Shown: in pieces, positions 29,040-64,000 of the stretch
Numbering within the stretch: the first letter of the stretch is position 1
How the letters are laid out: every line of letters starts with the position of its first letter
Source: Candidatus Tenebribacter davisii
GTDB lineage: Bacteria > Cloacimonadota > Cloacimonadia > Cloacimonadales > TCS61
Assembly (NCBI GenBank): GCA_030765535.1
Contig: JAVCCH010000086.1
Location: forward strand, 5,930-69,929
Length of the DNA stretch: 64,000 nt
Direction of reading: 5' to 3'
Made by a program: the position numbers and the translations under genes
The notes under the pieces: generated by a model
What the model saw: only the letters and a program-made list of their open reading frames with translations
Told to the model about the DNA's origin: nothing
The model's database searches: none

Positions 29040-32000
29040 TTATTTCAAAAGTAACATTTTTTTAGTTTCAGTTTTACTATCAGTTATTAGCCTATAGAAA
29101 TATACTCCTGAGCTGCAATTGTCAGCATTCCATAAATAATTATGAGTGCCGGAATTGAAGCGTTGAGTTTCAACTATTTGCCCTTTCATATTGAATATGG
29201 TCAATACACCCGTTTCATTTTCACTGATATCTAACAAGATACAAGTATCAGGATTAAATGGATTAGGACGATTCTGGTAAAGTTTAGAAACTAATGGTGT
29301 TAAAACTATACCGGAATCAAGAACATTTTCTACAACTACATTCCATGCATAATATATTGCATCCCTAGATTCACCTTCTCCAAAGTTATCAGTAACATTA
29401 AGCGTTATTTCATATTCTCCAGCAGAGTTTTCATCAGTAATGAAATCGTAAGTAGCTTCTATTGATTGTTCTACTCCATCTATCTGCCAGCTATATTCAA
29501 GGTCATTTCCATCCGGGTCAAAAGCATCAACAGAGAAATTGATAATCTCACCCTCATCTATAATTATAGTACCTACATCAGGAACTAATTCATTTACGAC
29601 AACACTCTGATCTGAATCAATTACGATCAATTCCCATTCCTGAGATACACTTGCTCTGCTTTCTTCTTTATTCATAGCAGATTCAACTGATTTATCAATT
29701 TTGGAAACTTTTCCTTCTCTTTCTGAAATTCCATCATCAACAATGCACTTAATTAAGTATGTACCTGCTGAGTAATAATCAGATTCATAAGTATAAGTAC
29801 TAACAGTTTGATCAACTTGCATGATATCATCAACGAACCACTGGTAAGCCAGTATTTCAGAATCAATATCTGTTGCAATTACCAAGAATGTCTGCATCTC
29901 GGTTTCATTGATCGTAATAGATGATGCAGAAGGATCAAATTCAATGATTACTGGAGCATCATTTACGTTATTTACTGTAACTCTTACTTCATCAGTAACT
30001 GATGCCATGCTATCATCTGTTGCTGTAAATATGATATCTTCGAAACCGAACCAATCAGCATCAGGTGTTAATGTAACGATTCCTTCATAAACACTTACAT
30101 CGATATTGGAATTACCAGTATAAGTGAAGGTAAGGAAATCACCATATGCAAGATCTTCATCATCAAATACATTATTCAGATCTATTGAAGAATCTGTTGT
30201 ATCTTCATCAAATGAGAAATCTACAATTGGATATTGAACAAATGGTACTGCATTAGCGTTAGGATAGCCGGCTGCAGCTCCGCAATAAGCCCAAACTGAC
30301 TGCCATGTATCATCGCTATTCCCACTTTCATGGATGTAAACTACCATTGGTCCTTCTTTATTCATAGATTTCATATTTGCCATTTCATCAGAAGATGATG
30401 AACCGTCGATAATTACTGCAGCCATTCTGTAATCATATTCAACAAATCCATTAGGAACTTGAAGCATTACTGATGCATTATTTTCAACTGGAGGATCATA
30501 GAGGTATACATTAGCAACTGCCTGCCAGTTTTGTGCTGCTGTTGTATCAGCATCACTTTCAACAACGTAGTAATCTATACTAGGCATTTCTGCTTCATTA
30601 TGGAAAGGATCATTAACTGATAATTCATAATCAATATAGATCCATCCACCTTCATCTCCCGGTACGTCATATGCAGTTGTATTTGTAGGAGGTTCAATTG
30701 TTGGATATAGAATTTCTATAGGATCTGAGTAACTATGATTTTCAAATGGATACATTCCATATGCTTCTATTACAAGATCACTCATGATTTCAAATGAAAT
30801 ACAGTTATCATAAACCTGATATCCATATGTTTGGTAAGGTTCATTAGGCAAAGTAACATCATCTGGATAATTTGACAGGAAGTGAATTACATTTGAATAA
30901 TCACAATCAAGCATTCCAGCGTCATCTAAAGCTGCAACATTAACACTGAAATATGTCCCATATTCTGGTGATTCCGGTGTAGTTGTAATATCGAACCCTG
31001 TAGCAATGATGTCAACTTCAACCGGTACTATAGGATCAATATCAGTTTCAATATTGCCGGGAACATCTGTTGCGATCGTATAGAATTCATAAAGACCTTC
31101 TGCACATATAAATGAACTTGCCTCAAGACAATAGCTGAATGTACCGTCTTCATTGCCTGTGACATCTGTATCTGCTAGAATGAATCCTAAGCCGTCATGA
31201 TTTACATAAAGTTCAACTTGTTGAATACCATTGTAATCATAAGCTTCCCACTCGACTTCTATACAAGCAATAGCAGTGTTATACATTGCTGATGTAACTT
31301 CAGAAAGTGGATTTTCTGTATCTATACCGAAAACATCCGCTTCTTCATATGGAACCATTACATTCTCTGCCGGATAATCTTCAGCACCTTCAATATGTAC
31401 ATCAATATCAGGAAGTGTAACACCTGCATCTGCAACGTCATAGTAAGCTATGTATGTGTCAGTGTATAACCACTCACCATGATTTAGAATTATCGTTGTA
31501 CCAGGATCCTCATTAGGGAATGTTATTACAGGATCTGCAATTCCAGTCATCATCATGGATCCGCTAAATCCTATTTCTAAAGTAAACATACTTGTTCCAA
31601 CATCTGCATCAGTTATTAACAATGGACTTGCAATTAACGAAACAACAGTTGGATTCTCTGTATCTATACTGAAGACATCTGCAACATCATAAGGGATCTG
31701 GATGTTCAAAGCAGGATAGTCTGTAGCTCCCTCAACATGTACATCTATATTCCAAATTGTCACACCGGCATCATATACATCATAATAAGCCATGTATGAA
31801 TCCGTATCAATCCAACTACCTTCACTAAATACAATTGTACTAGATGGGTCTTCAACCGGGAAGGTAATTAAAGGATCTGACATTACTCTACTATCCGGAT
31901 ACATATTCTCGTTGTAATTAATGGTTAGAGTAAACATATCAGGACCTTCATCGGAATCTGTGATCAATAGAGGATCAGCTACTACAGAAATAACATAAGG

Positions 32001-35000
32001 ATTTTCTGTATCTATATCAAAGACATCTGCTTCATCATATGGATCCTGCGGATTACCATCAGGAAAGTCTGCAGCACCATCGACATGCACATCAATGCCC
32101 ATTACTGTTTCATTTACATCAACAACAGTATAAACAGCTTCATAAGTATCATGAGTTGTTTCATAAACTAACCAATCACCACTTATAAAAGTTATTGTAT
32201 TTAGAGGATCTTCGTTAGGGAATGTAAGCACAGGATCAGCAGTTCCGTCTTTTAGCATAAGTTCGCTGAATTCCACTTCAATAGTAAATTGTCCAACTCC
32301 AACATCATCGTCTGAAATTAATTCAGGATATGCAGTTAAACTAACTACAGTAGGATTTGCTGTATCTATGCTGAAGACAATTTCTTCTTCATAAGGAACT
32401 TGAATATTCCCTGCAGGATCATCTAAAGCTCCCTCTACAAGAACATCTATATCCTGACCTACTTCATTTACATCTGCAACATCATAATGAGCTACATATG
32501 TGTCTATATCAAACCATACACCATAATTAAATGTCAGCGTACTATTTGGTGTAAGTGAAATTACCGGGTCAGCAGTTGTATCTGTTAACATATCTTCACT
32601 ATAATCTACAGTTAATGTAAACATATCAATACCAACAGTAGCATCTGTAATCAAGACAGGATCTGGTGTTAAGCCGGTAACCCATGGATTCTCCGTATCG
32701 ATACTTGCAACATCAGCAAACCAAGTTGGATTTGGATCTTGTAAATTCCCTGCTGGATAGTCGGTACCGCCACTTACCCCTACAGTAAGGTTCAATTCAG
32801 TAGTATTAAGATCAACAACATCGTAATGCCATACATATGTATGTGTATCTGTCCATCCACCAGATATTAATAGTGCAGTACTGAACAAATTCCTTTCAGG
32901 AAGAACGATCTCAGGATCACTCCTGGTAGGTGCAGTCATATCTTCACTAAAAACTGCTGTAAGTGTAAAGGTATCACTACCGACATCTGAGTCAGTAATA
33001 AGATACGGATCAGCTGTTAATGAAAGAACAATTGGATTCTCAGTATCAATATCAAACGCATCTGCTTCATCAAATACAACCTGAGCATTTCCAGCTCTGT
33101 CATCTAAAGCACCTTCTACATGTACATCAATATCCAGAACTGTCTCACCTACATCTATAATGTCGTAGGTCAATACAAAATTAAATGCATCTGTCCACAA
33201 AGGAACGGGATCAATTAACGTTGCAGAAACAACAGGATCAAATTCAATAGTAGGATTTACACCCATATCCATCTCTTCGTCATACTCCAAGGATACAGTG
33301 AATAAACCTCCTGCATCAACATCTGTAATAAACAAATCTGAAAGTGTCATATTAACCACTGCCGGATTTTCTGTATCTATACTTACTACATCTTCTTCCA
33401 TATAGTAAATCTGAACATTTCCAGCTGGATCATCGGTAAATCCTGAAACGTATATATCAATATCCAGTTCAGTAGTGTTAATATCAACAACATCATAATG
33501 CGCTACATATGTTTGCGGATTTGGCCATTCATCGTATGATAAAGTTATAGTACTGAACAAATACCGTTCAAGACAACCGATCTCAGGATTACTCCTGGCT
33601 AATGGGTACATATCTTCACTAAATACAACCGTAAATGTAAATTTATCTACACCAACATCTGCATCAGTAATAAGAGCCGGATTGGCTGTTAATGAAACAA
33701 CGGTTGGATTCTCAGTATCTATACTGAAAACATCCACCTCATCATAAGGAACTTGGTCATTCCCCGCTGGATCATCTAGCGCACCCTCAACATGTACATC
33801 AATACCTACTATATCTACTCCGTCATCGCTTACATCATATGTCATCTCGAACACTGTATTGCTAAGCCATACTGGTGTTGGATTTGATAAGGTTGATGGT
33901 ACAAGAGGATCAAATACAATAGTAGGATTTACGGTCATATCCATAACTTCAGAATATTCAACTTGAACAGAAAAGTTTCCTGCTCCTGCATCGGAATCTG
34001 AGATTAGAATCATTGATGGTGTAATAGAAACTACGGTAGGATTTTCTGTATCTATACTGAATACATCCACCTCATCATAAGGATCTTGAGGATTTCCCGT
34101 ACAAGCTTCTACAGCACCCTGGACATGAACATCAACAAAGGGTACAGTTTCATCTACATCTATAACATCATAATAAGCAACGTAAATGTCATAGCAATAA
34201 TAACAATCTGCTCCTTCACTCTGCTCCTCACCTCTATTTTCGGCTTGTTGTTGGGAATACCACTCACCATAACTGAATGATATTGTATTCAATGGATTCT
34301 CAACTGGGAATGTAATATCCGGATCTATGTTTTCATTCATACATTTATCGTAAACAACAGTTAGAGTAAACATATCATCTCCAACAGTTGCATCTGTAAT
34401 TTCTACAGGATCTGGCCATAACTCAACAACTTCCGGACCATCAGTATTTATGTCGAAACCTTCTTCTTCAGTAAATGGAATTTGAGTATTTCCGGCCGGA
34501 TCATCTATAGCGTCAGTTATCGTATAACCAACACAATTTTCAATAACATCATTATCTATAACATCGTATGTCATCACAAATGTATCAGAATCTGTCCATA
34601 ATGGAACAGGATTTATTAAAGTTGTAGATACATCAGGATCAAATACAATAGTTGGATATACAGTCATATTCATATTCTCGCTGTAATCCACTGTTAATGT
34701 GAATGTGGTGACAAGAGCGTTAATAGAACCTGGATTCGCTGTTACTCCGGTAACCCATGGATTCTCTGTATCAACACTTACACAATCTTCTTCCATATAA
34801 GGAATCAGATAATTCCCAGCTGGATAATCGGTACCACCTGAAAGATAGATAGTGATATTAAGTTCAGTAGTATTTTCATCTGATACATCATAATGCCAAA
34901 CTTTTGTATATGAATTTGTCCATTCGCTATATATTAAGGTTATAGTATCGAACAGATATCTTTCCTCAAGATAAATCTCAGGCTCACTCCTGTCAGCTGG

Positions 35001-37217
35001 AATCATATCTTCACTAAATACTGCCGTAAATGTAAAAGTATCTGAACCAACATCTGAGTCAGTAATAAGAGCCGGATTTGCTGTTAATGAAAGAACGGTT
35101 GGATTCTCAGTATCTATATCAAAAGCATCCGGTGCTGTATATGGTACCTGGATATTCCCAGCTTCATCAACAGCATCAGCTACGGTAATATCAATATCCT
35201 CAATGTCTACTCCAGCATCCGCTATGAGATAAGTCATCTTGAAAAGTGTAGAGCTAAGCCATAATGGCGTTGGAGTTGGTAAGGTTGATGATACATCAGG
35301 AGCAAATTCAATAGTAGGATTTACGTTCATATCCATTGCTTCATAGAATTGTACCATAACTGTAAATGGTGTTCCAACTTCAGAATCAGTAATGAAAGGA
35401 GGAGTTGCTGTTAATGCATCTACCATTGGATTATCGGTATCTATGCTGAATACTTCCTCTTCAGTATATTCAATTTGAACATTTCCAACTTCATCTTCTG
35501 CCTCAGCAACGGTAATATCAATATCGTCAACTTCTATTCCTGCATCTGCTACATCATATGTCATCACAAATGTATCAGAATCTGACCAGTCAGGATCAGG
35601 ATTTGATAAAGTTGATGCTACATCAGGATCAAATTCGATTGTAGGATTTACAGTCATATCCATATCTTCAGAATATTCAACTGTTACAGAGAAGTTTCCT
35701 ACTCCTACATCCAAATCTGAGATTAAAGCAATATTAGAAGATAAGGAAAGAACGGTTGGATTAAGAGTCTCAACCTCAAAAGCATCTACTTCTATACCTT
35801 CAAACTGGACATTGCCTGCTTCATCTTCGGCATCATTAACTGTAATGTCAATATCCTCAATTTCTACTCCAACATCAACTACATCGTATGTCATCACGAA
35901 TGTATCAGAATATGGCCATGAAGGATTAGGATTAACCAATGTTCCAGAAACAGCCGGATCAAATACAATAGTAGGATTTACCATCATATCCATATCTTCA
36001 TTATAAACAACTTCAACTGAGAAATTGCCAGCTCCTGCATCAATATCTGTGATCATAATATCTGACGGTGTTATACTTCGAGCTGTTGGAGAAATACCAT
36101 CTTTAATATTAACCCATGTAATTACAGTGTTCTGATCACCATAAATATCCTCAATGCAGAGAGTTGCAGTTAATCTTAGTCTATTGATACCAATTAAGAA
36201 AGGTGGTATGTCTGCAATTTCTAAAGTTACGATAGGACCATTTACAGCAAAAGCTACTATTGGAGAAGGAACAGGAGTATCCAGAACTACTTCAAAATCA
36301 CTGATCTGAACGCTAGAGAATTCAATATCTTCTGAAAAGAAAACATCAATGTAAGTATCTGCACCATCCTCCCTAGTTATTGCTTCCTCGATATAAGGTC
36401 CACCGCCATATACAGCAAGGTTAGCCATTGGATCACGTAGCGCAAACGGGTTATCGAGCATAGTATTGTGAAATCCTAATCTTGGTAACATCGGCACATA
36501 GCCCACGGTGGGATTCCCGCCATTTAATAAATTAGGATTGGGAATGTCCATCACATACGTATCATTTGGTAAGACTGTAGTTTCAAAACTGTCATGTTCC
36601 AAAGGAATTCCGGCGAATATACCATCTGTAAATTGGAAGATCGTAGTTGGATCATCGAAAGCACCTTGAGGAAACCAGGTCGGATTCAAAGGCTCTGTAA
36701 ATCTTACTTTGATCTTATCAACATAATCATCTGAATTTGTATCGAAAGTATTCAGTTCAATAAGTAGAGGTGAAGCACCGTCAAATACAGGCTGCGGTGT
36801 AAATGTCTCTAAATATTCACCATAGATGTCCATAATTCTTCGTGTCGGATTACTGATATACCACAAAGTAATATCACCAGTAAAACCTGTTCCAAGATTA
36901 CTAGGCATAGTGATATGAGCTCTGAATATGTTATCACCTGCTGTCTCACCTGTATCCAGATAATCTATTATAAGGGCATAAGAACCACCTACAATAAAAT
37001 CACTATTAATGCCAGCCGCATTAAGTGCCACCCAATCGGTAGCACCTCCATCATCATCGATTGAGTTGGACATATAGATATCGAATGCATCAATCCAACC
37101 ATCCAAGTTATCGTCTTCTGTTACAATATTGCTGACATTGCTTCTCTCTTGAGCAAAAGCAACAGTAAATAAACTTAAAATCAGCAGTATTACTAATAAG
37201 CAACTAATTTTTTTCAT
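29040..37217 (-). CDS. Giant acidic secreted/surface protein (2725 aa) with 14 tandem Ig-like repeats, cadherin-like/PKD domains and C-terminal T9SS-type-A/FlgD-like sorting domain
   Basis: Signal peptide; repeats end in DTENP; VNNVNDAP; C-terminus LYQNRPNPFNP..IFNMKGQ..SSGVYFYRL..KKMLLLK. Confidence 0.85.
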   Translation of the reverse strand: MKKISCLLVILLILSLFTVAFAQERSNVSNIVTEDDNLDGWIDAFDIYMSNSIDDDGGATDWVALNAAGINSDFIVGGSYALIIDYLDTGETAGDNIFRAHITMPSNLGTGFTGDITLWYISNPTRRIMDIYGEYLETFTPQPVFDGASPLLIELNTFDTNSDDYVDKIKVRFTEPLNPTWFPQGAFDDPTTIFQFTDGIFAGIPLEHDSFETTVLPNDTYVMDIPNPNLLNGGNPTVGYVPMLPRLGFHNTMLDNPFALRDPMANLAVYGGGPYIEEAITREDGADTYIDVFFSEDIEFSSVQISDFEVVLDTPVPSPIVAFAVNGPIVTLEIADIPPFLIGINRLRLTATLCIEDIYGDQNTVITWVNIKDGISPTARSITPSDIMITDIDAGAGNFSVEVVYNEDMDMMVNPTIVFDPAVSGTLVNPNPSWPYSDTFVMTYDVVDVGVEIEDIDITVNDAEDEAGNVQFEGIEVDAFEVETLNPTVLSLSSNIALISDLDVGVGNFSVTVEYSEDMDMTVNPTIEFDPDVASTLSNPDPDWSDSDTFVMTYDVADAGIEVDDIDITVAEAEDEVGNVQIEYTEEEVFSIDTDNPMVDALTATPPFITDSEVGTPFTVMVQFYEAMDMNVNPTIEFAPDVSSTLPTPTPLWLSSTLFKMTYLIADAGVDIEDIDITVADAVDEAGNIQVPYTAPDAFDIDTENPTVLSLTANPALITDSDVGSDTFTFTAVFSEDMIPADRSEPEIYLEERYLFDTITLIYSEWTNSYTKVWHYDVSDENTTELNITIYLSGGTDYPAGNYLIPYMEEDCVSVDTENPWVTGVTANPGSINALVTTFTLTVDYSENMNMTVYPTIVFDPDVSTTLINPVPLWTDSDTFVMTYDVIDNDVIENCVGYTITDAIDDPAGNTQIPFTEEEGFDINTDGPEVVELWPDPVEITDATVGDDMFTLTVVYDKCMNENIDPDITFPVENPLNTISFSYGEWYSQQQAENRGEEQSEGADCYYCYDIYVAYYDVIDVDETVPFVDVHVQGAVEACTGNPQDPYDEVDVFSIDTENPTVVSITPSMILISDSDAGAGNFSVQVEYSEVMDMTVNPTIVFDPLVPSTLSNPTPVWLSNTVFEMTYDVSDDGVDIVGIDVHVEGALDDPAGNDQVPYDEVDVFSIDTENPTVVSLTANPALITDADVGVDKFTFTVVFSEDMYPLARSNPEIGCLERYLFSTITLSYDEWPNPQTYVAHYDVVDINTTELDIDIYVSGFTDDPAGNVQIYYMEEDVVSIDTENPAVVNMTLSDLFITDVDAGGLFTVSLEYDEEMDMGVNPTIEFDPVVSATLIDPVPLWTDAFNFVLTYDIIDVGETVLDIDVHVEGALDDRAGNAQVVFDEADAFDIDTENPIVLSLTADPYLITDSDVGSDTFTLTAVFSEDMTAPTRSDPEIVLPERNLFSTALLISGGWTDTHTYVWHYDVVDLNTTELNLTVGVSGGTDYPAGNLQDPNPTWFADVASIDTENPWVTGLTPDPVLITDATVGIDMFTLTVDYSEDMLTDTTADPVISLTPNSTLTFNYGVWFDIDTYVAHYDVADVNEVGQDIDVLVEGALDDPAGNIQVPYEEEIVFSIDTANPTVVSLTAYPELISDDDVGVGQFTIEVEFSELMLKDGTADPVLTFPNEDPLNTITFISGDWLVYETTHDTYEAVYTVVDVNETVMGIDVHVDGAADFPDGNPQDPYDEADVFDIDTENPYVISVVADPLLITDSDEGPDMFTLTINYNENMYPDSRVMSDPLITFPVEDPSSTIVFSEGSWIDTDSYMAYYDVYDAGVTIWNIDVHVEGATDYPALNIQIPYDVADVFSIDTENPTVVSLIASPLLITDADVGTSMFTLEIGFSGSMMMTGIADPVITFPNEDPGTTIILNHGEWLYTDTYIAYYDVADAGVTLPDIDVHIEGAEDYPAENVMVPYEEADVFGIDTENPLSEVTSAMYNTAIACIEVEWEAYDYNGIQQVELYVNHDGLGFILADTDVTGNEDGTFSYCLEASSFICAEGLYEFYTIATDVPGNIETDIDPIVPVEVDIIATGFDITTTPESPEYGTYFSVNVAALDDAGMLDCDYSNVIHFLSNYPDDVTLPNEPYQTYGYQVYDNCISFEIMSDLVIEAYGMYPFENHSYSDPIEILYPTIEPPTNTTAYDVPGDEGGWIYIDYELSVNDPFHNEAEMPSIDYYVVESDADTTAAQNWQAVANVYLYDPPVENNASVMLQVPNGFVEYDYRMAAVIIDGSSSSDEMANMKSMNKEGPMVVYIHESGNSDDTWQSVWAYCGAAAGYPNANAVPFVQYPIVDFSFDEDTTDSSIDLNNVFDDEDLAYGDFLTFTYTGNSNIDVSVYEGIVTLTPDADWFGFEDIIFTATDDSMASVTDEVRVTVNNVNDAPVIIEFDPSASSITINETEMQTFLVIATDIDSEILAYQWFVDDIMQVDQTVSTYTYESDYYSAGTYLIKCIVDDGISEREGKVSKIDKSVESAMNKEESRASVSQEWELIVIDSDQSVVVNELVPDVGTIIIDEGEIINFSVDAFDPDGNDLEYSWQIDGVEQSIEATYDFITDENSAGEYEITLNVTDNFGEGESRDAIYYAWNVVVENVLDSGIVLTPLVSKLYQNRPNPFNPDTCILLDISENETGVLTIFNMKGQIVETQRFNSGTHNYLWNADNCSSGVYFYRLITDSKTETKKMLLLK
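31308..36089 (-). repeat. 14 intragenic Ig-like repeats of about 114 aa
   Basis: Counted 14 units of pattern P.V.SLT..P.LITD.DVG...F...V.YSEDM...W...YDV.D...A.D..AGN.Q...FSIDTEN. Confidence 0.85.
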
Positions 37218-57042: not shown

Positions 57043-58058
57043 TGAAATTTAAATTAATATTAAAACAAATTTACACTTTTTTAAAAACATTCTGGAAAAA
57101 ATATAATGAAGACAAGATCTTCAAGGAATCTGCCGCTCTCACCTATGTAACATTATTGGGATTTGTACCCTTTATTATCTTCCTGCTCTACTTTCTGCCG
57201 AATTTATCATTCATGAAAATGGAAGACCAAATATCAAAACTGGCGCTATCAATATTTGTTCCGGAATCTGCTGAAGCGATCTTTGATTATATAAATCAAA
57301 TAGCTCACAAAAGGATCCCATTTAACTTGATCAGTTTTGGTATCCTTATTTTCACATCTTATTCACTGTTTCAGATCATCAACTCTTCTTTTGACAGGAT
57401 ATTGTGTGCTAAAGAGATAAAATCAAAAAAATTTTTTACTGAGATTATCAGGTTTTTTGGAATGGCTATTTTTGGTTCTGTAATAATTCTGGCTCTACTT
57501 TCCGCAACTTCACTTCCCTTTGTTTCAAAATATCTGGAAATACCATTTTTACAAAATCTATCCCTTTATTTCACACCATTCCTGATCCTTTTTTTCATCT
57601 TCACACTGGGTTTCTTTTATATACCCACAGTTAAGGTGAAAAAACGTTCTATAGTTGCAGGAGCTGCTATTTCAGCAGCAATCTGGATCTTATTCAAAGC
57701 ATTTTTCAACTGGTATATTGCCACACTTACAAATATTGAAATAATCTTTGGTGTCTTAGGTGCAGTTCCTATCTTCCTTATCTGGATATATACAAACTGG
57801 ATAATTATGCTAAGTGGTGTTGTTATCGTATCTATCTTAGAAGGAAGGGACAGCGCAGAAGATGATACACATAAAGACCTGCAGGCAGTAAAAATTACTT
57901 TTGAAAAATATGTTGATAAAAAAGACATGAAGAACCTGCAGAAAACAACATTGAACAAAAGTGAACTTAAAAATATACTAAGAGAATTAGTCAAAGAAGA
58001 AGAAGAAACAGAAGAAATAGATATCCAAAAAAATGAGTTTACAGAAAAAGACGAATAA
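57042..58058 (+). CDS. YihY/virulence factor BrkB family membrane protein
   Basis: SAALTYVTLLGFVP, IFGVLGAVPIFLIWIYTNWIIMLSG. Confidence 0.88.
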   Translation: MKFKLILKQIYTFLKTFWKKYNEDKIFKESAALTYVTLLGFVPFIIFLLYFLPNLSFMKMEDQISKLALSIFVPESAEAIFDYINQIAHKRIPFNLISFGILIFTSYSLFQIINSSFDRILCAKEIKSKKFFTEIIRFFGMAIFGSVIILALLSATSLPFVSKYLEIPFLQNLSLYFTPFLILFFIFTLGFFYIPTVKVKKRSIVAGAAISAAIWILFKAFFNWYIATLTNIEIIFGVLGAVPIFLIWIYTNWIIMLSGVVIVSILEGRDSAEDDTHKDLQAVKITFEKYVDKKDMKNLQKTTLNKSELKNILRELVKEEEETEEIDIQKNEFTEKDE

Positions 58059-58087
58059 TTTTTTTCACAATTAATAAAATATTAAAC

Positions 58088-58175
58088 GGAGACGTGTCCG
58101 AGTGGCTTAAGGAGCACGCTTGGAAAGCGTGTATGCGGCAACGTATCCTGGGTTCGAATCCCAGCGTCTCCGCCA
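58088..58175 (+). tRNA. tRNA-Ser(GGA)
   Basis: GGAGACG acceptor pairs with CGTCTCC-GCCA; anticodon arm CACGC-TTGGAAA-GCGTG; long variable arm; GGTTCGAATCC T-arm. Confidence 0.97.
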
Positions 58176-58239
58176 TTATAGTTTAATAAACCATTGTTAT
58201 TAAAGCATATACCAAATATCATTTCCTTTTTTATATTGC

Positions 58240-58263
58240 TATATGTGGCTATATATGTGGCTA
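58240..58263. repeat. Tandem 12-mer TATATGTGGCTA x2 (integrase arm-site-like)
   Basis: Perfect tandem copies 65 bp downstream of the tRNA-Ser CCA, plus a partial copy at 58232-58241. Confidence 0.6.
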
Positions 58264-58290
58264 TATTTTTCAAACTTCAACAATATATAC

Positions 58291-59319
58291 TTAGTCATGC
58301 TTATCAAATATAATTTTCTTCGCATTCTCGTTAATTGAATCCTTCTTTGATTTTATAGGATTACTTGAAAAATAGTTATCTAGAGTGCTCCGTTTAATAT
58401 AAAGCTTACCTCCTCCTGGCTTTGCAAATGGTATCTTCTTTTTTGATGTTAACTGATAAATTGCACTTATTGGACGGTCTATATAATCTGCTGCTTGTTG
58501 TGAGTTAAGCATATCTTCTGGAGAGTAATCTTTTTGAGTTTCTTCATGTTCAACACTGACTCCAATATTTTTCTCGTCTTTGGAAGTATTAGAAAAATCC
58601 TCTTTCCTTATTATATATAGATACACAATCTCAACAAATTTCTGGAATACTGCCCCGTTAGATTTATTAAATTTAGTATAGGCATCCGTTACTTGCTTAT
58701 ATTCATTCTTCATAGTATATTTTTTTTTTACAATACTATTATTTACAATGAATCGACTAACTATTTCAGAGAAAAAAGATTCTAACAAATCATTTAAGGA
58801 GTATAATCCGCTATTTGTATAAGATGTGATAAAATCCTTATATCTTTTATCATCTTCCTTTTCAAAGTCTTTAGTGTAAGGCATCAAGAAGTAAGAGTTA
58901 ACTCCTTCTTCGAATATCCTTGATTCTGCAATCATTATCACAAAGTAACATAGAAACGTAATTGTTTGGTGAACATTAAATCCATAATGTTCCATACATT
59001 TATCAAGACTCTCACCTTTACAGCTATTTAAAAATTGTTCTTTTGTAATATTGTCCTTCACCTGTTCTTTAAAGATTAATATTGGTACTCTCCTCTGAAG
59101 TTCAAGGTAATAGCATAGTTGAGAGTCTAACAATCTCCCTTCAATAGTTGCTTTATTCTTAGGATAACTCTGAACATGTTGTAAGAACCATTCAATAGTA
59201 ATATTCTTTAATAATTCGTCGGCCATTGTATTGGGCATAATGGCTTCGTATTGTTTTCCTTCTTCAACCTTCGACATAATGCGATCAAACTCTTTAAATG
59301 GATCCACTATCTTAACCAT
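58291..59319 (-). CDS. Hypothetical protein with C-terminal excisionase-like HTH (HTH_17)
   Basis: MLNSQQAADYIDRPISAIYQLTSKKKIPFAKPGGGKLYIKRSTLDNYF. Confidence 0.75.
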   Translation of the reverse strand: MVKIVDPFKEFDRIMSKVEEGKQYEAIMPNTMADELLKNITIEWFLQHVQSYPKNKATIEGRLLDSQLCYYLELQRRVPILIFKEQVKDNITKEQFLNSCKGESLDKCMEHYGFNVHQTITFLCYFVIMIAESRIFEEGVNSYFLMPYTKDFEKEDDKRYKDFITSYTNSGLYSLNDLLESFFSEIVSRFIVNNSIVKKKYTMKNEYKQVTDAYTKFNKSNGAVFQKFVEIVYLYIIRKEDFSNTSKDEKNIGVSVEHEETQKDYSPEDMLNSQQAADYIDRPISAIYQLTSKKKIPFAKPGGGKLYIKRSTLDNYFSSNPIKSKKDSINENAKKIIFDKHD

Positions 59320-59421
59320 CCTCTATTCTATTTGCATCATCACCATTTACCGCTCATGTATGAGCAGTAAAAAACTTTGTCGATCATATTTTGCATTTAT
59401 AAGCTACAAGATATCATTCAG

Positions 59422-60849
59422 CTATATTTTTTCGATAACTTCCCAATAGCCACCTTTATCTGGTCCTACTCTTTTTATTAATCCCCTCTCTTGTAGTACC
59501 CTTAAATTATATTTAACACCATCCTCTGTAATATTATCTAACTTTTCTGATATTTCTTTTCTGCTTGCTTTAGGATATTTTATCAAGAAATCTATAATCT
59601 CTTGTTGTTTCTGGGTAGTTTTCTGGGTAGTTTTCTGGGTAGTTTTCTGGGTAGTTTTCTGGGTAGTTTTCTGGGTAGTCATCTTGAGATCTACATAATC
59701 CAACCGGCTAATATAGATTGGTATATCATCCACATAGGTGCTCCATCCTTTGAATATCTTGTCAAAGCCATAACCAGCAGTTTCTGCAAGTTTGATAACT
59801 CTGAACATCTTGGCTATCAAAGGATTGCGTGGCTGTGAAATATCTGCTTTTCGTAGATCATTAAGATCTTTGGGTAATCCACCCGGATTATAGAATTCTA
59901 TATGATCAAGGAAAATCCGGATGCGTGGCTTAGAAGTACTAAAATAATCTGCATGCATCAACATGTTTACCAATGCTTCTCGAAGTGCTTGCACATGAGG
60001 TTGTTCTTCAGTTGCCATTCCTTCAGCTGTCATTTTAAAAGGAATATCTATTTTTTGCAGTAACCTGGGATAAATAGCGAAATAATACTCAAAGATGTTC
60101 TGCTGCTGATCTAATCTGAAGCTATATCTCTCTTCAGCATCATCCAAAGATGTACCTGGTATCTCTAAGTAATCTATCCTGAAGTCTGCAATCATCTCTT
60201 CGATTTTCTCTGCTTGCCCAAAGAAAAGCAGTCCGGCAACTGTTACTTTACCTTCTTTTATAACCTGTAGTTTCTGTAGCAAATCATCATCAGATATTAA
60301 GTTGTAAGGATGGGAAGGATTAGTTGTAGCAAGATAATTTCTATAGCGTTCGATTGATCTCTGATCGAGAGCATCAGGAGCATTAGTGGTAAGTTCACGA
60401 TCTTTTGTACCGAATGCTTGATCCCGATACATAGCATCAATTTCTGCTTGTGTAGCTCTCTGATCTCCACTGGCAGTTCTGATGAATGTGTTCTTAACAT
60501 TGTTGTAATAAACAGGCTTTTGAGCTGAAACACGGATGTAGAAAGCCAATACTGTTTTGCTTTCAATCTCATATTTCCTACAGATCGGATCGATCCTTAC
60601 ATTGAATTTCTGGTTCGATCTTAAGGTAGTGATAAAGCTTTGCTCGATCTTTTCCGGATCTACTACGCCGTATATTGTATACTTTTCTTTTTGTTGAAAG
60701 ACACCAAATACTAACCAGCCACCACCTGTATTGGCAAACGCACTTACTGTTTCCCAGCTATTTTTGGGAATCGATTTTTCTGCCTTCTTTACTTCGAAGT
60801 CATCCCACTCGATGTCTTGCAATCGTTTGATCAGATCTTCTTTTGTCAT
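59422..60849 (-). CDS. Schlafen/AlbA_2 + HATPase_c_4 ('RecG C-terminal') + wHTH protein
   Basis: EWDDFEVK..WETVSAFANTGGGWLVFGV; LREALVNMLMHADY; PRNPLIA; ETAGYG; C-terminal GPDKGGYW wHTH. Confidence 0.88.
   Translation of the reverse strand: MTKEDLIKRLQDIEWDDFEVKKAEKSIPKNSWETVSAFANTGGGWLVFGVFQQKEKYTIYGVVDPEKIEQSFITTLRSNQKFNVRIDPICRKYEIESKTVLAFYIRVSAQKPVYYNNVKNTFIRTASGDQRATQAEIDAMYRDQAFGTKDRELTTNAPDALDQRSIERYRNYLATTNPSHPYNLISDDDLLQKLQVIKEGKVTVAGLLFFGQAEKIEEMIADFRIDYLEIPGTSLDDAEERYSFRLDQQQNIFEYYFAIYPRLLQKIDIPFKMTAEGMATEEQPHVQALREALVNMLMHADYFSTSKPRIRIFLDHIEFYNPGGLPKDLNDLRKADISQPRNPLIAKMFRVIKLAETAGYGFDKIFKGWSTYVDDIPIYISRLDYVDLKMTTQKTTQKTTQKTTQKTTQKTTQKQQEIIDFLIKYPKASRKEISEKLDNITEDGVKYNLRVLQERGLIKRVGPDKGGYWEVIEKI
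59608..59679 (-). repeat. Perfect 12-bp tandem repeat x6 encoding (TTQK)6 linker
   Basis: TTTCTGGGTAGT repeated six times on the plus strand. Confidence 0.95.
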
Positions 60850-60949
60850 ATTAATCTCCTATATCAATCCAACCGTCAATCTACTATTCAAATCGTCAAT
60901 CTTTCTAATTATATTTATTACAGTATCTTGGATTTCTACTTATCCACTT

Positions 60950-60967
60950 TGGTGGGCCCAAGTGGAC
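60950..60967 (-). mobile_element. Relic tRNA 3'-end (tRNA-Ile-like), att-like site
   Basis: Minus strand GTCCACTTGGGCCCACCA resembles the T-stem 3' half, acceptor and ACCA of tRNA-Ile(GAT); no 5' half is present. Confidence 0.6.
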
Positions 60968-61070
60968 ACTATCAGAACTTTATTTATGAATCCAAGTGAT
61001 AAAATATTATCAACGATTCATTTAGCTGAAAATGTGTAAAACAGGTCATAATTAATTGATCTTTATTCTT

Positions 61071-61180
61071 CCCCAATTACATAACGGTTACATATGTAAT
61101 GTTATTGTATTACATAGAGTTAGTAAACTATTACGAAATTTATCAAGATTATAGTTACATAAGCCGGTTAAGCTTATTTC
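61071..61180 (-). repeat. 110-bp recombination-site-like element, copy A
   Basis: 83/110 gapless identity to 62671-62780; TTACATA at 61077, 61088, 61110, 61155. Confidence 0.85.
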
Positions 61181-61213
61181 TAAGAACTTTTCATAATGAA
61201 ATTAAGATCAGGA

Positions 61214-62665
61214 TCAAGCCCAAAAAGGGAGATAGGCTGCATGTTTTCTAGATTTGCTCTTAGGATCTGCGTCTATTATCAATTTAGATATTAGTGCATC
61301 TTTAATAATTCTGGAAGCCATGGGATAGTTTTTATCTGAGATTTTAAAACGTTCTCGAATAGATTTATTTGTCATTTGCTCTCTTTGTACGTATTTTAAG
61401 CAAGCATGTTGATAACAAGCCCTTATTCGATCTTCTTTAGACATTTTAGATAATTCTTTGTATGAGTATAAAATTACTTTTGTAGCATTTTCTTCCCGAA
61501 TAAATTCTGGAGCAGGTAATTGATATAATTCTACGTTAAATATAACCCTATCAACACCAGAACCACGTTCTTCACAAATTTTGATTCTACGGAGAAAAGA
61601 TGCAATAGCTTCATTACGTGATTGTGGTGCAGCATCAATAAATCGGTGAATATCAATAAGTGGAGTACCAGGATTAGTAATTTCTATTCGGTTATTAAAA
61701 ATCTCAATCATCACGCTGGTTCCAGTTATAGTAAAATCCTGGTGAATAATTGCATTTGCTACTAATTCTCGAATCGCTACTTCCGGATAAATTTTTGATT
61801 CTTCTCTAAAAATTTTTGTGATTGTTTCATTTGTAGGAAGCTGGGAAATAATAAAGTTGATTAATCCTTCAAATGCTGAGGCATATCCTTTCTTACCTGT
61901 TTGTTCTAATTTTGCATTTAATTTATTAATTCCATCATAGACTATGACTCGGACGGCCTTTCGATTAATTCTGTCAAACTCATTAAGATTCTTCGCAAAT
62001 AATAGTGCTCCTAGGTTTGTTATAGAGTAATAATCATCTGAATTTTGAATAATAAACTTCTCATCTTTCATCTTGTGGATTATCCCATCCTTTGACTCCG
62101 GAAGTGGCTGTTTTAACAGCCTGAAGTAGTTATCGAAGTCTAAAAAGCGAATAATTTCTTCTTTTGTACAATTATGTTTAGCTAAGCCAGATTCAAAGTT
62201 AATATTTGCAGTTTTGGAAATCATTGTAGCTACTTCTTGCCGTGTCATTTTTCTTGTTTGTCCAGCAGATCTCGTATAGCAATGATATATGTCCTTACCT
62301 CTCATATGCACAGGCCTAAACTGACTTGAAGGAACATATACAGCAAGAAATGATTGTTTTTTGTATTCTAATATAGAATGTTTTATAATGATTGGTGGTT
62401 GTAATGATTCTCGGGAGATATTACCAATTTTTTTTATAATTTCTTTGCATTCATCGCTACCTATTCCTGTATATTTTCCTGAATCGTTAAACCCAAAAAC
62501 CATGAAGCCACCGTTATCAAGATTAGAAAATGCCGAAATATGTTGTGACAGTCGTTGCGTATTAGGTGATAAATTTTCTTTCCAATCCAACTCATTTAAC
62601 TCGGTTGGCACACTATCAAGACTCTTGTTCAGCAACTCTAAACATCTCTTTTCCCAACTCTTCAT
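61214..62665 (-). CDS. Schlafen/AlbA_2 + HATPase_c_4 + HTH protein (second, divergent)
   Basis: ELNELDWKE..ISAFSNLDNGGFMVFG; YPEVAIRELVANAIIHQD; SRNEAIA; EERGSG; C-terminal YLPFWA. Confidence 0.88.
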   Translation of the reverse strand: MKSWEKRCLELLNKSLDSVPTELNELDWKENLSPNTQRLSQHISAFSNLDNGGFMVFGFNDSGKYTGIGSDECKEIIKKIGNISRESLQPPIIIKHSILEYKKQSFLAVYVPSSQFRPVHMRGKDIYHCYTRSAGQTRKMTRQEVATMISKTANINFESGLAKHNCTKEEIIRFLDFDNYFRLLKQPLPESKDGIIHKMKDEKFIIQNSDDYYSITNLGALLFAKNLNEFDRINRKAVRVIVYDGINKLNAKLEQTGKKGYASAFEGLINFIISQLPTNETITKIFREESKIYPEVAIRELVANAIIHQDFTITGTSVMIEIFNNRIEITNPGTPLIDIHRFIDAAPQSRNEAIASFLRRIKICEERGSGVDRVIFNVELYQLPAPEFIREENATKVILYSYKELSKMSKEDRIRACYQHACLKYVQREQMTNKSIRERFKISDKNYPMASRIIKDALISKLIIDADPKSKSRKHAAYLPFWA

Positions 62666-62670
62666 TCGAC

Positions 62671-62780
62671 CTCCAGTTACATAACAGTTACATAGGTATT
62701 ACCAATGTATAACATAGACTTAGCAACCTACTAGTAATTTAACCCGGCTTAGAGTTACATAAGCCAGTTATGTTTATATC
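62671..62780 (-). repeat. 110-bp recombination-site-like element, copy B
   Basis: Exactly 1600 bp from copy A; fills almost the whole gap between the MTase stop (62789) and the ATG at 62665. Confidence 0.85.
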
Positions 62781-62788
62781 ACGCTCCA

Positions 62789-64000
62789 TCACACTCCCCT
62801 CAACTTCGCATAACCCGCCATAAATTTCTTCATCTCTCTACCAAATTTCACTGTAAGCTTCGCTGACTCTCCTGCCCCGGCAATGTATACGATTTCACCT
62901 TCACCAAACTTATCATGGAAGACGTGCTGGCTAACATGGAAGCTGGTAAGGATGCCTTCTTCCGTTGGTTGTGTTTCCGGCTTTGGTGCAGAGATAGTGG
63001 AAAACAAATCCATCTGGTGTTTATCTTCTTTCTTCGATTCTGGTTTGGTTTTGGTAAGATCGATACTCTTACGCACAAATTTCGGCTGTTCTGCTTTCTT
63101 TTTACTCTTTCCTTTCTTATGCAATCCCTGCTTTTCTTCTTCCTCATAAATTTTATGGTTAAGGAGAAGCAGACGCTTTAGCACTTCTTTACGTGCTTCG
63201 GGAGAGATTGTATAGCGCACCCGATCATTCTCCGGCAGATAATCCACCTCATAGAAATCATGTTTAAGCTCAATAGCGGGACTATCTTCAGAATCTACGT
63301 TCCAACCATACGCTTCCAATACTGCCTCATCCATTTCTTTGTGCAGTTGGCGCAGTTTGATGATATCTGCAATTGCTTCTTCCATTGTGCAAGTACCTGG
63401 AGTTTTCTGCAGATGATTCCACAGATAGACAGTGTCTTTGCCGAACTTTTTCTCCAGCTCTTTTCTATTCTCAATTTGGCTACTGGCTATTTCGCTTGTT
63501 AGCTTTGCATTATGAAACTGATTATAGGTTTTGGTAAGCCCCAACAACAACTTTTGCATTAACTGACGGCGGAACTCGTTATATTCCTCGCCGATTTGTT
63601 CCAGATTGGATTTTGTTTCTGCTAAAAGGGGGTTTGGAAAAGGGAAAGTTTCAAATGCATCTGTATTTGTATAACTTAAAGTAGAGCTACCAAGTGTTGA
63701 GCAATTTCTCCATGCCCAGATGGAATGAATAGAAGATTGGATGATAGAAAACTTGTAAAATTGATCAAACAATATAACACCAACCGAATTTGAAAAAATA
63801 CAATGCTTTGAAAAAATAGAAAAATTTAAAAACTTACTTGAAAGAGCGGTTACAATAACAAATTCTGCATTTGCTATATTATTATATAATTCTGGTCTTA
63901 GCCTTTCAAACAACCACCATTTTTCTCTTAACTTTTTGTCTTTACTATTATCTCTGATTGGTTTTACTCTTTTTTTCACAATTTCTAAAGCTTGCCGATA
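62789..64000 (-). CDS. C-terminal part of an MmeI/type IIG-IIL or DISARM DrmMI-like DNA methyltransferase, with terminal UvrD/PcrA-type Tudor domain (5' truncated)
   Basis: Frame open to base 64000. WWLFERLRPELY, SSIHSIWAW..STL..FETFPFP, GLTKTYNQFH, LRQLHKEMDEAVLEAYGW; catalytic motifs lie outside the window. Confidence 0.75.
   Translation of the reverse strand, partial: YRQALEIVKKRVKPIRDNSKDKKLREKWWLFERLRPELYNNIANAEFVIVTALSSKFLNFSIFSKHCIFSNSVGVILFDQFYKFSIIQSSIHSIWAWRNCSTLGSSTLSYTNTDAFETFPFPNPLLAETKSNLEQIGEEYNEFRRQLMQKLLLGLTKTYNQFHNAKLTSEIASSQIENRKELEKKFGKDTVYLWNHLQKTPGTCTMEEAIADIIKLRQLHKEMDEAVLEAYGWNVDSEDSPAIELKHDFYEVDYLPENDRVRYTISPEARKEVLKRLLLLNHKIYEEEEKQGLHKKGKSKKKAEQPKFVRKSIDLTKTKPESKKEDKHQMDLFSTISAPKPETQPTEEGILTSFHVSQHVFHDKFGEGEIVYIAGAGESAKLTVKFGREMKKFMAGYAKLRGV

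Follow-up and report, generated by a model that had tools for sequence, protein, structure and literature searches.

A Schlafen-GHKL gene between twin repeat sites

The stretch of DNA analysed here, hereafter called the window, comprises 64,000 nucleotides of Candidatus Tenebribacter davisii (Cloacimonadota) and corresponds to positions 5930-69929 of contig C17 (JAVCCH010000086.1), which continues 4.7 kb beyond it. The genome is a metagenome-assembled genome (MAG) of 3.0 Mb in 218 contigs with a completeness of 95%. In a DISARM-like defence island adjoining a tRNA gene, two similar sites, termed A (downstream) and B (upstream), bracket one 483-amino-acid (aa) gene. The gene has the minus strand as its coding strand and encodes an AlbA_2/Schlafen domain, a GHKL ATPase domain and a predicted C-terminal winged helix. 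The minus-strand gene order is SNF2 helicase, methyltransferase, site B, 483-aa gene, site A, spacer, 475-aa paralogue and 342-aa HTH_17 protein, followed by tRNA-Ser(GGA) on the other strand (Table 1).

By repeat search and gap-free alignment, the sites were recovered as a two-copy direct repeat of 108 nt (61073-61180 and 62673-62780) with 76% identity and a start-to-start spacing of exactly 1600, which bears out a preliminary description of this DNA that had reported twin direct sites 1600 bp apart around one AlbA_2 gene. The full site was present at only these two places in the whole genome. Read on the coding strand, copy B starts with ACATAAC-TGGCT-TATGTAAC and ends with GTTATGT-AACT-GGAGG-TCGA-ATG; copy A starts with GCTTAAC-CGGCT-TATGTAAC and ends with GTTATGT-AATT-GGGGA-AGA-ATA. 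The heptamer starts, 5-nt spacer and GTTATGT ends described earlier were thus found in both copies, and two details of copy B were corrected: four bases (AACT) separate GTTATGT from the GGAGG said to follow it directly, and the ATG lies 19 nt, not 20, after the G/TT. The similarity between A and B extends past the site, through the ribosome-binding site (RBS) and up to the start codon (RBS-to-start stretch GGAGGTCGAATGAAGAG in copy B and GGGGA-AGAATAAAGAT in copy A), the start being decayed in copy A (ATG to ATA). A single terminator-like match (62746-62765) was detected, a stem GGCTTA/TAAGCC around the distal repeat, in copy B only.

Repeats of the TATGTAA type are located at offsets 0, 11, 33 and 78 from the 3' end; all four are exact repeats in copy A, and the repeat at offset 33 in copy B reads TATGTTA instead. 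Each site can be written as an array of same-strand TTATGTAAC 9-mers at offsets 0, 45, 67 and 78. The word TATGTAAC occurs eight times in the window (2.77 expected), with five of the eight occurrences inside the two sites and all five on the minus strand; this excess and clustering are more than chance. The fixed length, the non-palindromic interior and the helically phased direct repeats noted earlier were all upheld, and the sites are real and purposeful, unlike typical attC sites.

An assignment to ordinary integron attC sites with an IntI integrase was considered very improbable. attC sites begin shortly after the stop of integron cassette open reading frames (ORFs), and the heptamers fit RYYYAAC...GTTRRRY in both copies. 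The locus further has in common with integron cassettes a promoterless ORF, a site of about 60-140 bp almost directly after it and sites on both sides. Unlike integron cassettes, it has no imperfect palindrome or hairpin, no IntI and no diverse arrays, and its site co-varies with the cassette's own protein. Folded as single-stranded DNA, neither strand of either copy did better than shuffled sequence (z −1.10, −1.97, −1.00 and −1.55), no integrase was found on the contig, only one gene family lies between such sites, and the heptamers belong to the 9-mer TTATGTAAC and to one inverted half-copy beside the distal repeat. The integron geometry proposed in the preliminary description was not supported.

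In the encoded protein, the AlbA_2/Schlafen domain was identified with Pfam (PF04326, E 6.5e-15) and with Foldseek, which matched the N-domains of SLFN11/12/13/14 (E 4e-5 to 1e-3). The GHKL ATPase domain (PF13749, E 1.3e-23) was matched by Foldseek to histidine and PDK kinases, and 3lmm was a further Foldseek match (E 6e-20). With PADLOC, the gene was matched only weakly, to the Schlafen parts of pAgo-associated proteins. An AF2 model (58 orthologues, pLDDT 89.3) contains the Schlafen and GHKL domains as well as two helix-helix-helix-strand-strand units (168-216 and 410-480). The C-terminal unit is predicted to consist of helices at 410-426, 433-440 and 444-459 and strands at 463-465 and 477-480, its third helix being the recognition helix K445-N-Y-P448-M-A-S-R-I-I. 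The C-terminal helix-turn-helix (HTH) of the 483-aa protein was modelled by AF2 and not called by Pfam, which did call it in the paralogue; the co-variation with the DNA repeats described below also supports its assignment. E22 and K29 are invariant in the 58 orthologues, and D27 lies five residues past E22, a spacing by which alone the pair was likened to E15/D20 of RorSlfn5 as given in the accessible text on that protein.

According to the accessible parts of recent papers, a C-terminal HTH is present in more than 90% of Schlafen-GHKL proteins (bioRxiv 10.64898/2026.05.29.728809, which names roughly 60,000 such proteins), Schlafen domains bind and cut RNA (PMC13056530, PMC13462974), bacterial Schlafens are phage-activated tRNases (2026 papers), and a GHKL domain drives tetramers in a Schlafen-Argonaute. 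The activation of restriction-linked Schlafen-ATPase proteins and the role of their HTH tail are left open in the parts of the 2026 papers accessible to us.

Recurrence of the arrays and co-variation with the protein

Further copies of the site, for which the preliminary description proposed a search and which are absent elsewhere in the window's own genome, were found in 13 of 61 other Cloacimonadota genomes (5 of 22 genera, the window's own counted). The core TATGTAACNGTTATGTAA was exact in 11 of 15 copies, carried one to two mismatches in three and was absent in one (L034_2). Outside the core the sites diverge by 15-40%, and whole sites are about 60-88% alike; the 9-mers are selectively kept while the spacers diverge by up to 40%. 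An orthologous 483-aa gene directly follows the site in the loci L009, L024, L034 and L027 (frameshifted in L027), and a second copy lies about 1600 bp downstream in all three loci with an intact gene and downstream sequence (L009, L024, L034), the orthologue being the only gene family so bracketed. The site is fused at the RBS to a UDG-like gene in L025 and to a Bro-N gene in L026, and no second site was found after either. Stubs of the 483-aa ORF with a length of 12-50 aa (MKSWEKRCLELL...) follow the site in L029, L030, L031, L032 and, more decayed, L033. Across genomes, upstream copies are 86% identical to each other and downstream copies 85-88%, compared to 61-74% for the two copies within one locus, which argues that the duplication is old and that the copies were not homogenised.

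The sites occupy at least three contexts, namely a dprA-rph hot spot, a dnaJ-rsmE hot spot and the DISARM-like island of the window. The variable content of the two defence hot spots (L025-L034) includes type IIG and type ISP enzymes, an N6_N4 methylase, DUF3800, DUF5655, DUF6577 and DUF559. The alleles L064 and L065 part precisely where the 3' module, the repeat array past the stop of the gene, has its 5' edge. L064 and L066 belong to one metagenome contig of 27,161 bp that carries the same partial orthologue at both ends in opposite orientation, probably a palindromic assembly artefact. In most Cloacimonadota modules (L025, L027-L033, L057, L058, L065) a palindrome ATCCGGAT is kept about 4 nt past the distal repeat; it is degenerate in the two copies of the window (AGCCGGGT and ATCTTGAT) and could be bound by a second factor or methylated. 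The locus itself was detected in nine DNA sequencing runs from marine and salt-lake metagenomes.

Beyond Cloacimonadota, the exact 20-base core pattern was found in 21 records of a species-level genome collection. It directly precedes orthologues in a Nitrospirota MAG (L041, 58% identity) and a Bacteroidota MAG (L051, 48%); in a Chitinophaga MAG (L052) it precedes the start of an orthologue that is truncated by the contig end, and in a Janthinobacterium MAG (L038) it comes directly after an orthologue's stop. The repeats of these copies are placed at 0, 66 and 77, compared to 0, 67 and 78 in the window, the spacings of 66/67 and 11 being kept. The same 20-mer, ATGTAACTGTTATGTAACTGG, is carried past the first ORF of a near-identical element in several Bacteroidota records and one record labelled Epsilonproteobacteria (L043, L048, L049, L054, L055). 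This element encodes a 425-449-aa ORF without Pfam match, HTH_17, a D5-type primase-helicase and DUF6371; as it contains no orthologue, it was excluded as a possible chance or unrelated match.

A metagenome scan with the protein yielded 525 confirmed relatives from 595 candidate stretches, of which the best 80 (42-100% identity) were kept and reduced to 70 by near-identity. Overall, the relatives compared in this analysis are mostly MAG or metagenome contigs. Among loci with at least 200 nt past the stop, at least two cores (AT[GT]T[AG]A[CT]) lie on the coding strand no more than 130 nt past the stop in 45/59, compared to 0/59 on the other strand and 9/1180 coding controls; the first core begins within 20 nt of the stop in 43/59. 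A pair with 11-bp phasing is present in the first 45 nt past the stop in 32/66 loci (controls 38/1400) and within the 60 nt leading up to the start in 20/68 (controls 43/1220). When 46 loci were searched, each with its own seed, the distances between copies clustered at 11 (58 cases), 66-67 (25) and 77-78 (19), the flanks hold 174 copies on the coding strand (92 of them by construction) and 15 on the other, and the copy density is 13.6 per kb in flanks and 0.6 per kb elsewhere. The upstream and downstream flanks align with each other (score of at least 30) in direct orientation in 15 of 57 loci and inverted in 1 of 57, and no locus's best coding control reached that score. The repeat word varies by clade (TTATGTAAC, TTATGTGAC, TTATTTGAC/T, GATGTAAC/GATGTGAC, TTATGTGAT and others) and is identical on both sides within a locus.

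The neighbours looked up (only ten upstream and ten downstream genes, selected by size) are mostly restriction genes: the upstream gene encodes HsdS (4), HsdR (2), MmeI (1) or DprA (1) and the downstream gene HsdR (5), HsdM (1) or others (4); further positions are after DrmMI and before serA-like and rarA-like genes. In L108 and L118, hsdS takes in the first repeat pair of the upstream module at its 3' end and so runs about 20 codons beyond the usual ...TGQLKV terminus, which looks like an in-frame fusion of the module to hsdS.

One explanation for such a distribution is that the modules are recombination sites, and that the gene with its 3' module forms a mobile cassette with an integron-like layout and other chemistry. 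Recombination between direct copies would then excise a 1600-bp circle and leave one site; recognition of the sites would fall to the encoded winged helix, on behalf of either some recombinase or the Schlafen/GHKL protein itself. We regard this as unlikely. It would account for the sharp borders of gene and module in many unrelated contexts (hsdS, hsdR, MmeI and dprA neighbours; DrmMI; serA-like and rarA-like genes; dprA-rph and dnaJ-rsmE), for the alleles that part at the module edge, and for a module start 1-20 nt past the stop in 43/59 loci, a placement resembling that of attC. L025 and L026, whose genomes lack an orthologue, have solo sites joined to other genes, as would be expected after a deletion between two copies. 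Against it, the copies within a locus were not homogenised, there is neither a hairpin nor an array of different genes nor a second site past the UDG-like and Bro-N genes, and the five 'empty' sites in relatives hold decayed stubs of the same ORF, which indicates decay and not clean excision. The linked tyrosine recombinase predicted by the preliminary description was not found: all 13 PF00589 matches in the genome fall on other contigs, although this contig ends 4.7 kb past the window and such a gene may lie further on.

The 1600-bp circle or empty site proposed in the same description was sought in contigs of four metagenome runs compared over 58000-64000; no joint skipping 1600 bp was seen, which is weak evidence because contigs cannot show absence. 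Three of the four runs carry an allele diverged by about 10%, in which the gene end (61213) is joined to a 43-nt match of the site B proximal pair and then to other sequence; this was read as a relative with the pair directly past the stop and not as a circle junction. Cassette-like bracketing, as first described, stands, and in two relatives the same site is RBS-fused to the UDG-like and Bro-N genes; arrays of different cassettes were not found. A general system shuffling defence genes was not supported, since one orthologous family alone is bracketed and a second site is missing past the other two genes. Taken together, the integron and shuffling interpretation was largely wrong, and the intuition that the sites are designed was right.

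It is also conceivable, though quite improbable, that the twin copies are passive, i.e., a duplicated 5' leader or a scar from the gene wedging in, kept by hitch-hiking and recent transfer. The similarity running into the decayed start codon of copy A and the frequency of stubs would fit such an origin. The selective retention of the 9-mers would not, nor would the same architecture in orthologues that are only 42-58% identical and belong to several phyla, nor a motif variant that shifts with the protein in six of six independent pairs.

This shift was quantified across loci with at least two repeat copies. In 44 of 46 rows, core base 5 goes with residue 448 of the recognition helix, A with P and G with S: P448 occurs with ATGTAA in 21/21 rows and S448 with ATGTGA in 23/25; A448 (N-A/S-A in the helix) occurs with ATTTGA in 4/5. 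On a tree built by a quick method without residues 405-483, residue and base each changed at least seven times, and the changes had the same direction in 6/6 independent pairs on well-supported branches (sign test, p 0.031; seven pairs on all branches). Some P/S switches part very close relatives, e.g., L118 from L108 and L110. The rule was then tested out of sample on 7 of the 66 annotated plasmid records that contain an orthologue, and it held in all four applicable cases: NYS with ATGTGA in Desulfosarcina, NYP with ATGTA in Hymenobacter, and N-S/A-A with TTTGA in Cupriavidus and Pseudosulfitobacter. The plasmids of Providencia, Aliarcobacter and Picosynechococcus carry new words together with other helices. 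Repeated copies begin 3-10 nt past the stop in six of the seven plasmids.

The co-variation between residue 448 and base 5 is the decisive result for recognition of the repeats in cis by the encoded protein, and constitutes strong computational evidence that the protein's own winged helix would bind them on double-stranded DNA. Action in the mRNA, with the Schlafen/Alba domain or another RNA binder recognising UUAUGUAAC copies in the 5' leader and 3' tail and controlling translation or stability, appeared improbable. Such action would explain the strict sense-strand orientation (45/59 versus 0/59) and the proximal pair 4 nt before the Shine-Dalgarno sequence in site B, and it would agree with the RNA binding and cleavage described for Schlafen domains in the accessible text of PMC13056530 and PMC13462974. 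The co-variation partner, however, is the recognition helix of a winged helix, a reader of double-stranded DNA, and the 11-bp phasing and the distance of 66/67 nt (about six turns) are kept across phyla with unconserved sequence between them, which fits a DNA face and not an RNA fold. A permissive Rfam search of 60700-63000 gave no match, and no significant fold was obtained with DNA parameters.

The surrounding defence island

The features of the locus are compiled in Table 1. The tRNA-Ser(GGA) border and the excisionase-type HTH gene may mark an integrated element whose integrase would lie beyond the contig end.

Table 1 Features at and around the twin sites, in window coordinates and in minus-strand order
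Feature	Position	Strand	Remarks
DrmD/DpdE-like SNF2 helicase	contig C17 beyond the window, preceding the methyltransferase gene	minus	incomplete at contig end
DrmMI-like / type IIG methyltransferase, 1369 aa, 3' part	62789..64000, continuing past the window	minus	Pfam Eco57I, MmeI_Mtase, MmeI_TRD; PADLOC DrmMI E 3.7e-218
Site B, upstream module	62671..62780	minus	from just past the methyltransferase stop to the RBS of the Schlafen gene
Site B distal repeat TTATGTAAC	62754..62762	minus	preceded by inverted half-copy ACATAAC, 62767-62773
Site B middle repeat CTATGTTAT, degenerate	62709..62717	minus	
Site B proximal tandem pair CTATGTAAC-TG-TTATGTAAC	62676..62695	minus	11-bp phasing; then GGAGG 62670-62674 and ATG 62663-62665
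AlbA_2/Schlafen + GHKL ATPase (HATPase_c_4) + predicted C-terminal winged helix, 483 aa	61214..62665	minus	Pfam, AF2, Foldseek, co-variation
Site A, downstream module	61071..61180	minus	then decayed RBS and start GGGGAAGAATA
Site A repeats	TTATGTAAC 61154-61162; CTATGTAAT 61109-61117; ATATGTAAC 61087-61095; TTATGTAAT 61076-61084	minus	
Spacer of 220 bp, site A to next gene	60850..61070	minus	GATTGAC/T copies 60895-60901, 60875-60881 and 60863-60869, just before the RBS of the next gene
Second, distant paralogue, 475 aa	59422..60849	minus	25% identical, same domain order, winged helix detected by Pfam
Protein with C-terminal HTH_17 (excisionase-type), 342 aa	58291..59319	minus	last island gene before tRNA-Ser
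tRNA-Ser(GGA)	58088..58175	plus	edge of the defence island

In the second paralogue, about seven in-frame 12-bp tandem repeats ACTACCCAGAAA (coding strand, 59596-59691) lie between the GHKL part and the winged helix. Orthologues of this paralogue (L138, L139, L143) show similar 12-bp repeats (TTCGGTGAAAAC and others) past a stop codon, followed by HTH-like coding sequence; the repeats may form a length-variable linker that joins or splits off the HTH by slippage. Tandem ATATAGCCACAT copies were seen at 58240-58275, directly past the stop of the HTH_17 gene and before tRNA-Ser. Elsewhere in the window, a 2725-aa ORF lies on the minus strand (29040-37217).

Proposed roles of the arrays

The analysis shows a conserved cross-phylum architecture in which private phased repeat arrays flank a Schlafen-GHKL-winged-helix gene, and strong computational evidence indicates that they would be read by that protein. 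For the locus of the window, the favoured reading, with a probability of roughly 60%, is that the twin 110-bp sites would be cognate DNA-binding arrays for the protein encoded between them and act as operators or anchors. The C-terminal winged helix would read the same-strand TTATGTAAC 9-mers about one helical turn apart together with a distal copy about six turns off, probably in the form of head-to-tail dimers or tetramers; two phased pairs would suit the four winged helices of a tetramer. The tandem pair occurs only at sites A and B in the genome, which points to a local, cis function.

As site B spans the gene's leader and RBS, autorepression is the simplest role there, and site B would most likely be an auto-operator over its own 5' leader and RBS that holds a potentially toxic tRNase-type effector low. 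Site A is this lineage's version of the 3' module common to most orthologues, right past the stop. Such a module cannot repress the gene's own promoter. Site A would most likely be a second operator, a roadblock or an anchor, insulating or gating the downstream region; in general, the 3' module may be a second operator that forms a loop with the first, may stop read-through as a roadblock, or may serve to park protein made in cis.

Several observations weigh against cognate arrays of this kind or against parts of the proposed roles. A scan with the sigma-70 consensus returned 20 promoter-like sites (24.1 expected), none within sites A or B, and no RNA runs were listed for the locus. The genomes of the solo sites (G022 and G058, with a perfect site before other genes) have no close orthologue, the best identity being 25-31%. 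The sign test rests on six pairs and a tree made by a quick method. The 3' module is commoner than the 5' module (45/59 versus 20/68), and many orthologues stand directly behind hsdS without an upstream array, so autorepression cannot be the general role. A sizeable same-strand ORF begins within 60 nt past the 3' module in only 7 of 45 cases, so that acting as the operator of the next gene is not general either, and a general function of the 3' module as the next gene's leader was rejected. An extension of the repeat theme to the second paralogue was likewise rejected, since GATTGAC/T copies were not seen upstream in eight orthologous loci inspected by eye.

The arrays resemble several known systems. 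PhoB/OmpR boxes, plasmid Rep iterons and R1 ParR-parC are direct-repeat operators or centromeres in which head-to-tail repeats with about 11-bp phasing form two clusters by the gene of the binder. The present sites are like them in the head-to-tail phasing of about 11 bp, in the two clusters a few turns apart and in adjoining the binder's gene; they differ in that the binder is a defence nuclease-ATPase, by its predicted domains, in place of a response regulator, replication initiator or partition protein, and that the main array lies just past the stop. PrrC and RloC are anticodon nucleases inside type I restriction operons, PrrC being kept latent by protein contacts with the restriction enzyme. 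The likeness to PrrC/RloC lies in a latent tRNA-cutting effector gene (here predicted) wedged between hsdS and hsdR, with HsdS upstream in 4/10 and HsdR downstream in 5/10 of the neighbours examined; the domains are unrelated, and the present proteins have a predicted DNA-binding tail and flanking sites. Controller (C) proteins with their C-boxes in type II restriction systems, as well as BrxR/CapW of defence islands, are dedicated regulators on inverted repeats upstream of their own gene. The present loci share with them a small HTH-operator circuit in a defence locus, but in them the effector itself carries the HTH, and the repeats are direct and found mostly 3' of the gene. Closest in domain order and in association with restriction-modification and defence is pSlfn-HisKinase-HTH / Schlatpase (PMC13056530, bioRxiv 10.64898/2026.05.29.728809, PMC13462974, as far as their text was accessible); the accessible parts of these papers mention no cognate DNA sites flanking the genes, in contrast to the locus described here. 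No description of such flanking sites was found in the literature on Schlafen/AlbA_2 proteins and restriction-modification, although the supplements of Schlafen papers may hold more.

A bolder proposal, which we consider speculative and rather unlikely, is that the Schlafen-GHKL-HTH proteins, the commonest bacterial Schlafen defence class, are sequence-specific DNA binders tied to private, co-evolving flanking arrays that form either an immune-switch latch or a new single-gene mobile cassette. As a latch, array-parked tetramers would silence the tRNase until infection frees or reshapes them; as a cassette, the cargo protein would recognise its own 3' site, and the gene would wedge precisely between restriction genes.

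For annotation, the locus is a warning that integron-like heptamers can come from unrelated repeat words. For the family, binding by cognate arrays would be a partial and testable answer to how restriction-linked Schlafen-ATPases are controlled, in that the tail would read a 9-bp word, one residue (P/S448) tracks one base (A/G), and the words keep a fixed, phased arrangement about the gene. Binding sites would become predictable for hundreds of orthologues, and a swap of specificity would be possible. Cultured organisms are among the carriers: Picosynechococcus PCC 7002 has the gene in a type I restriction operon (hsdM-hsdS-gene-hsdR) of its plasmid pAQ3, and Cupriavidus necator has it on a plasmid.

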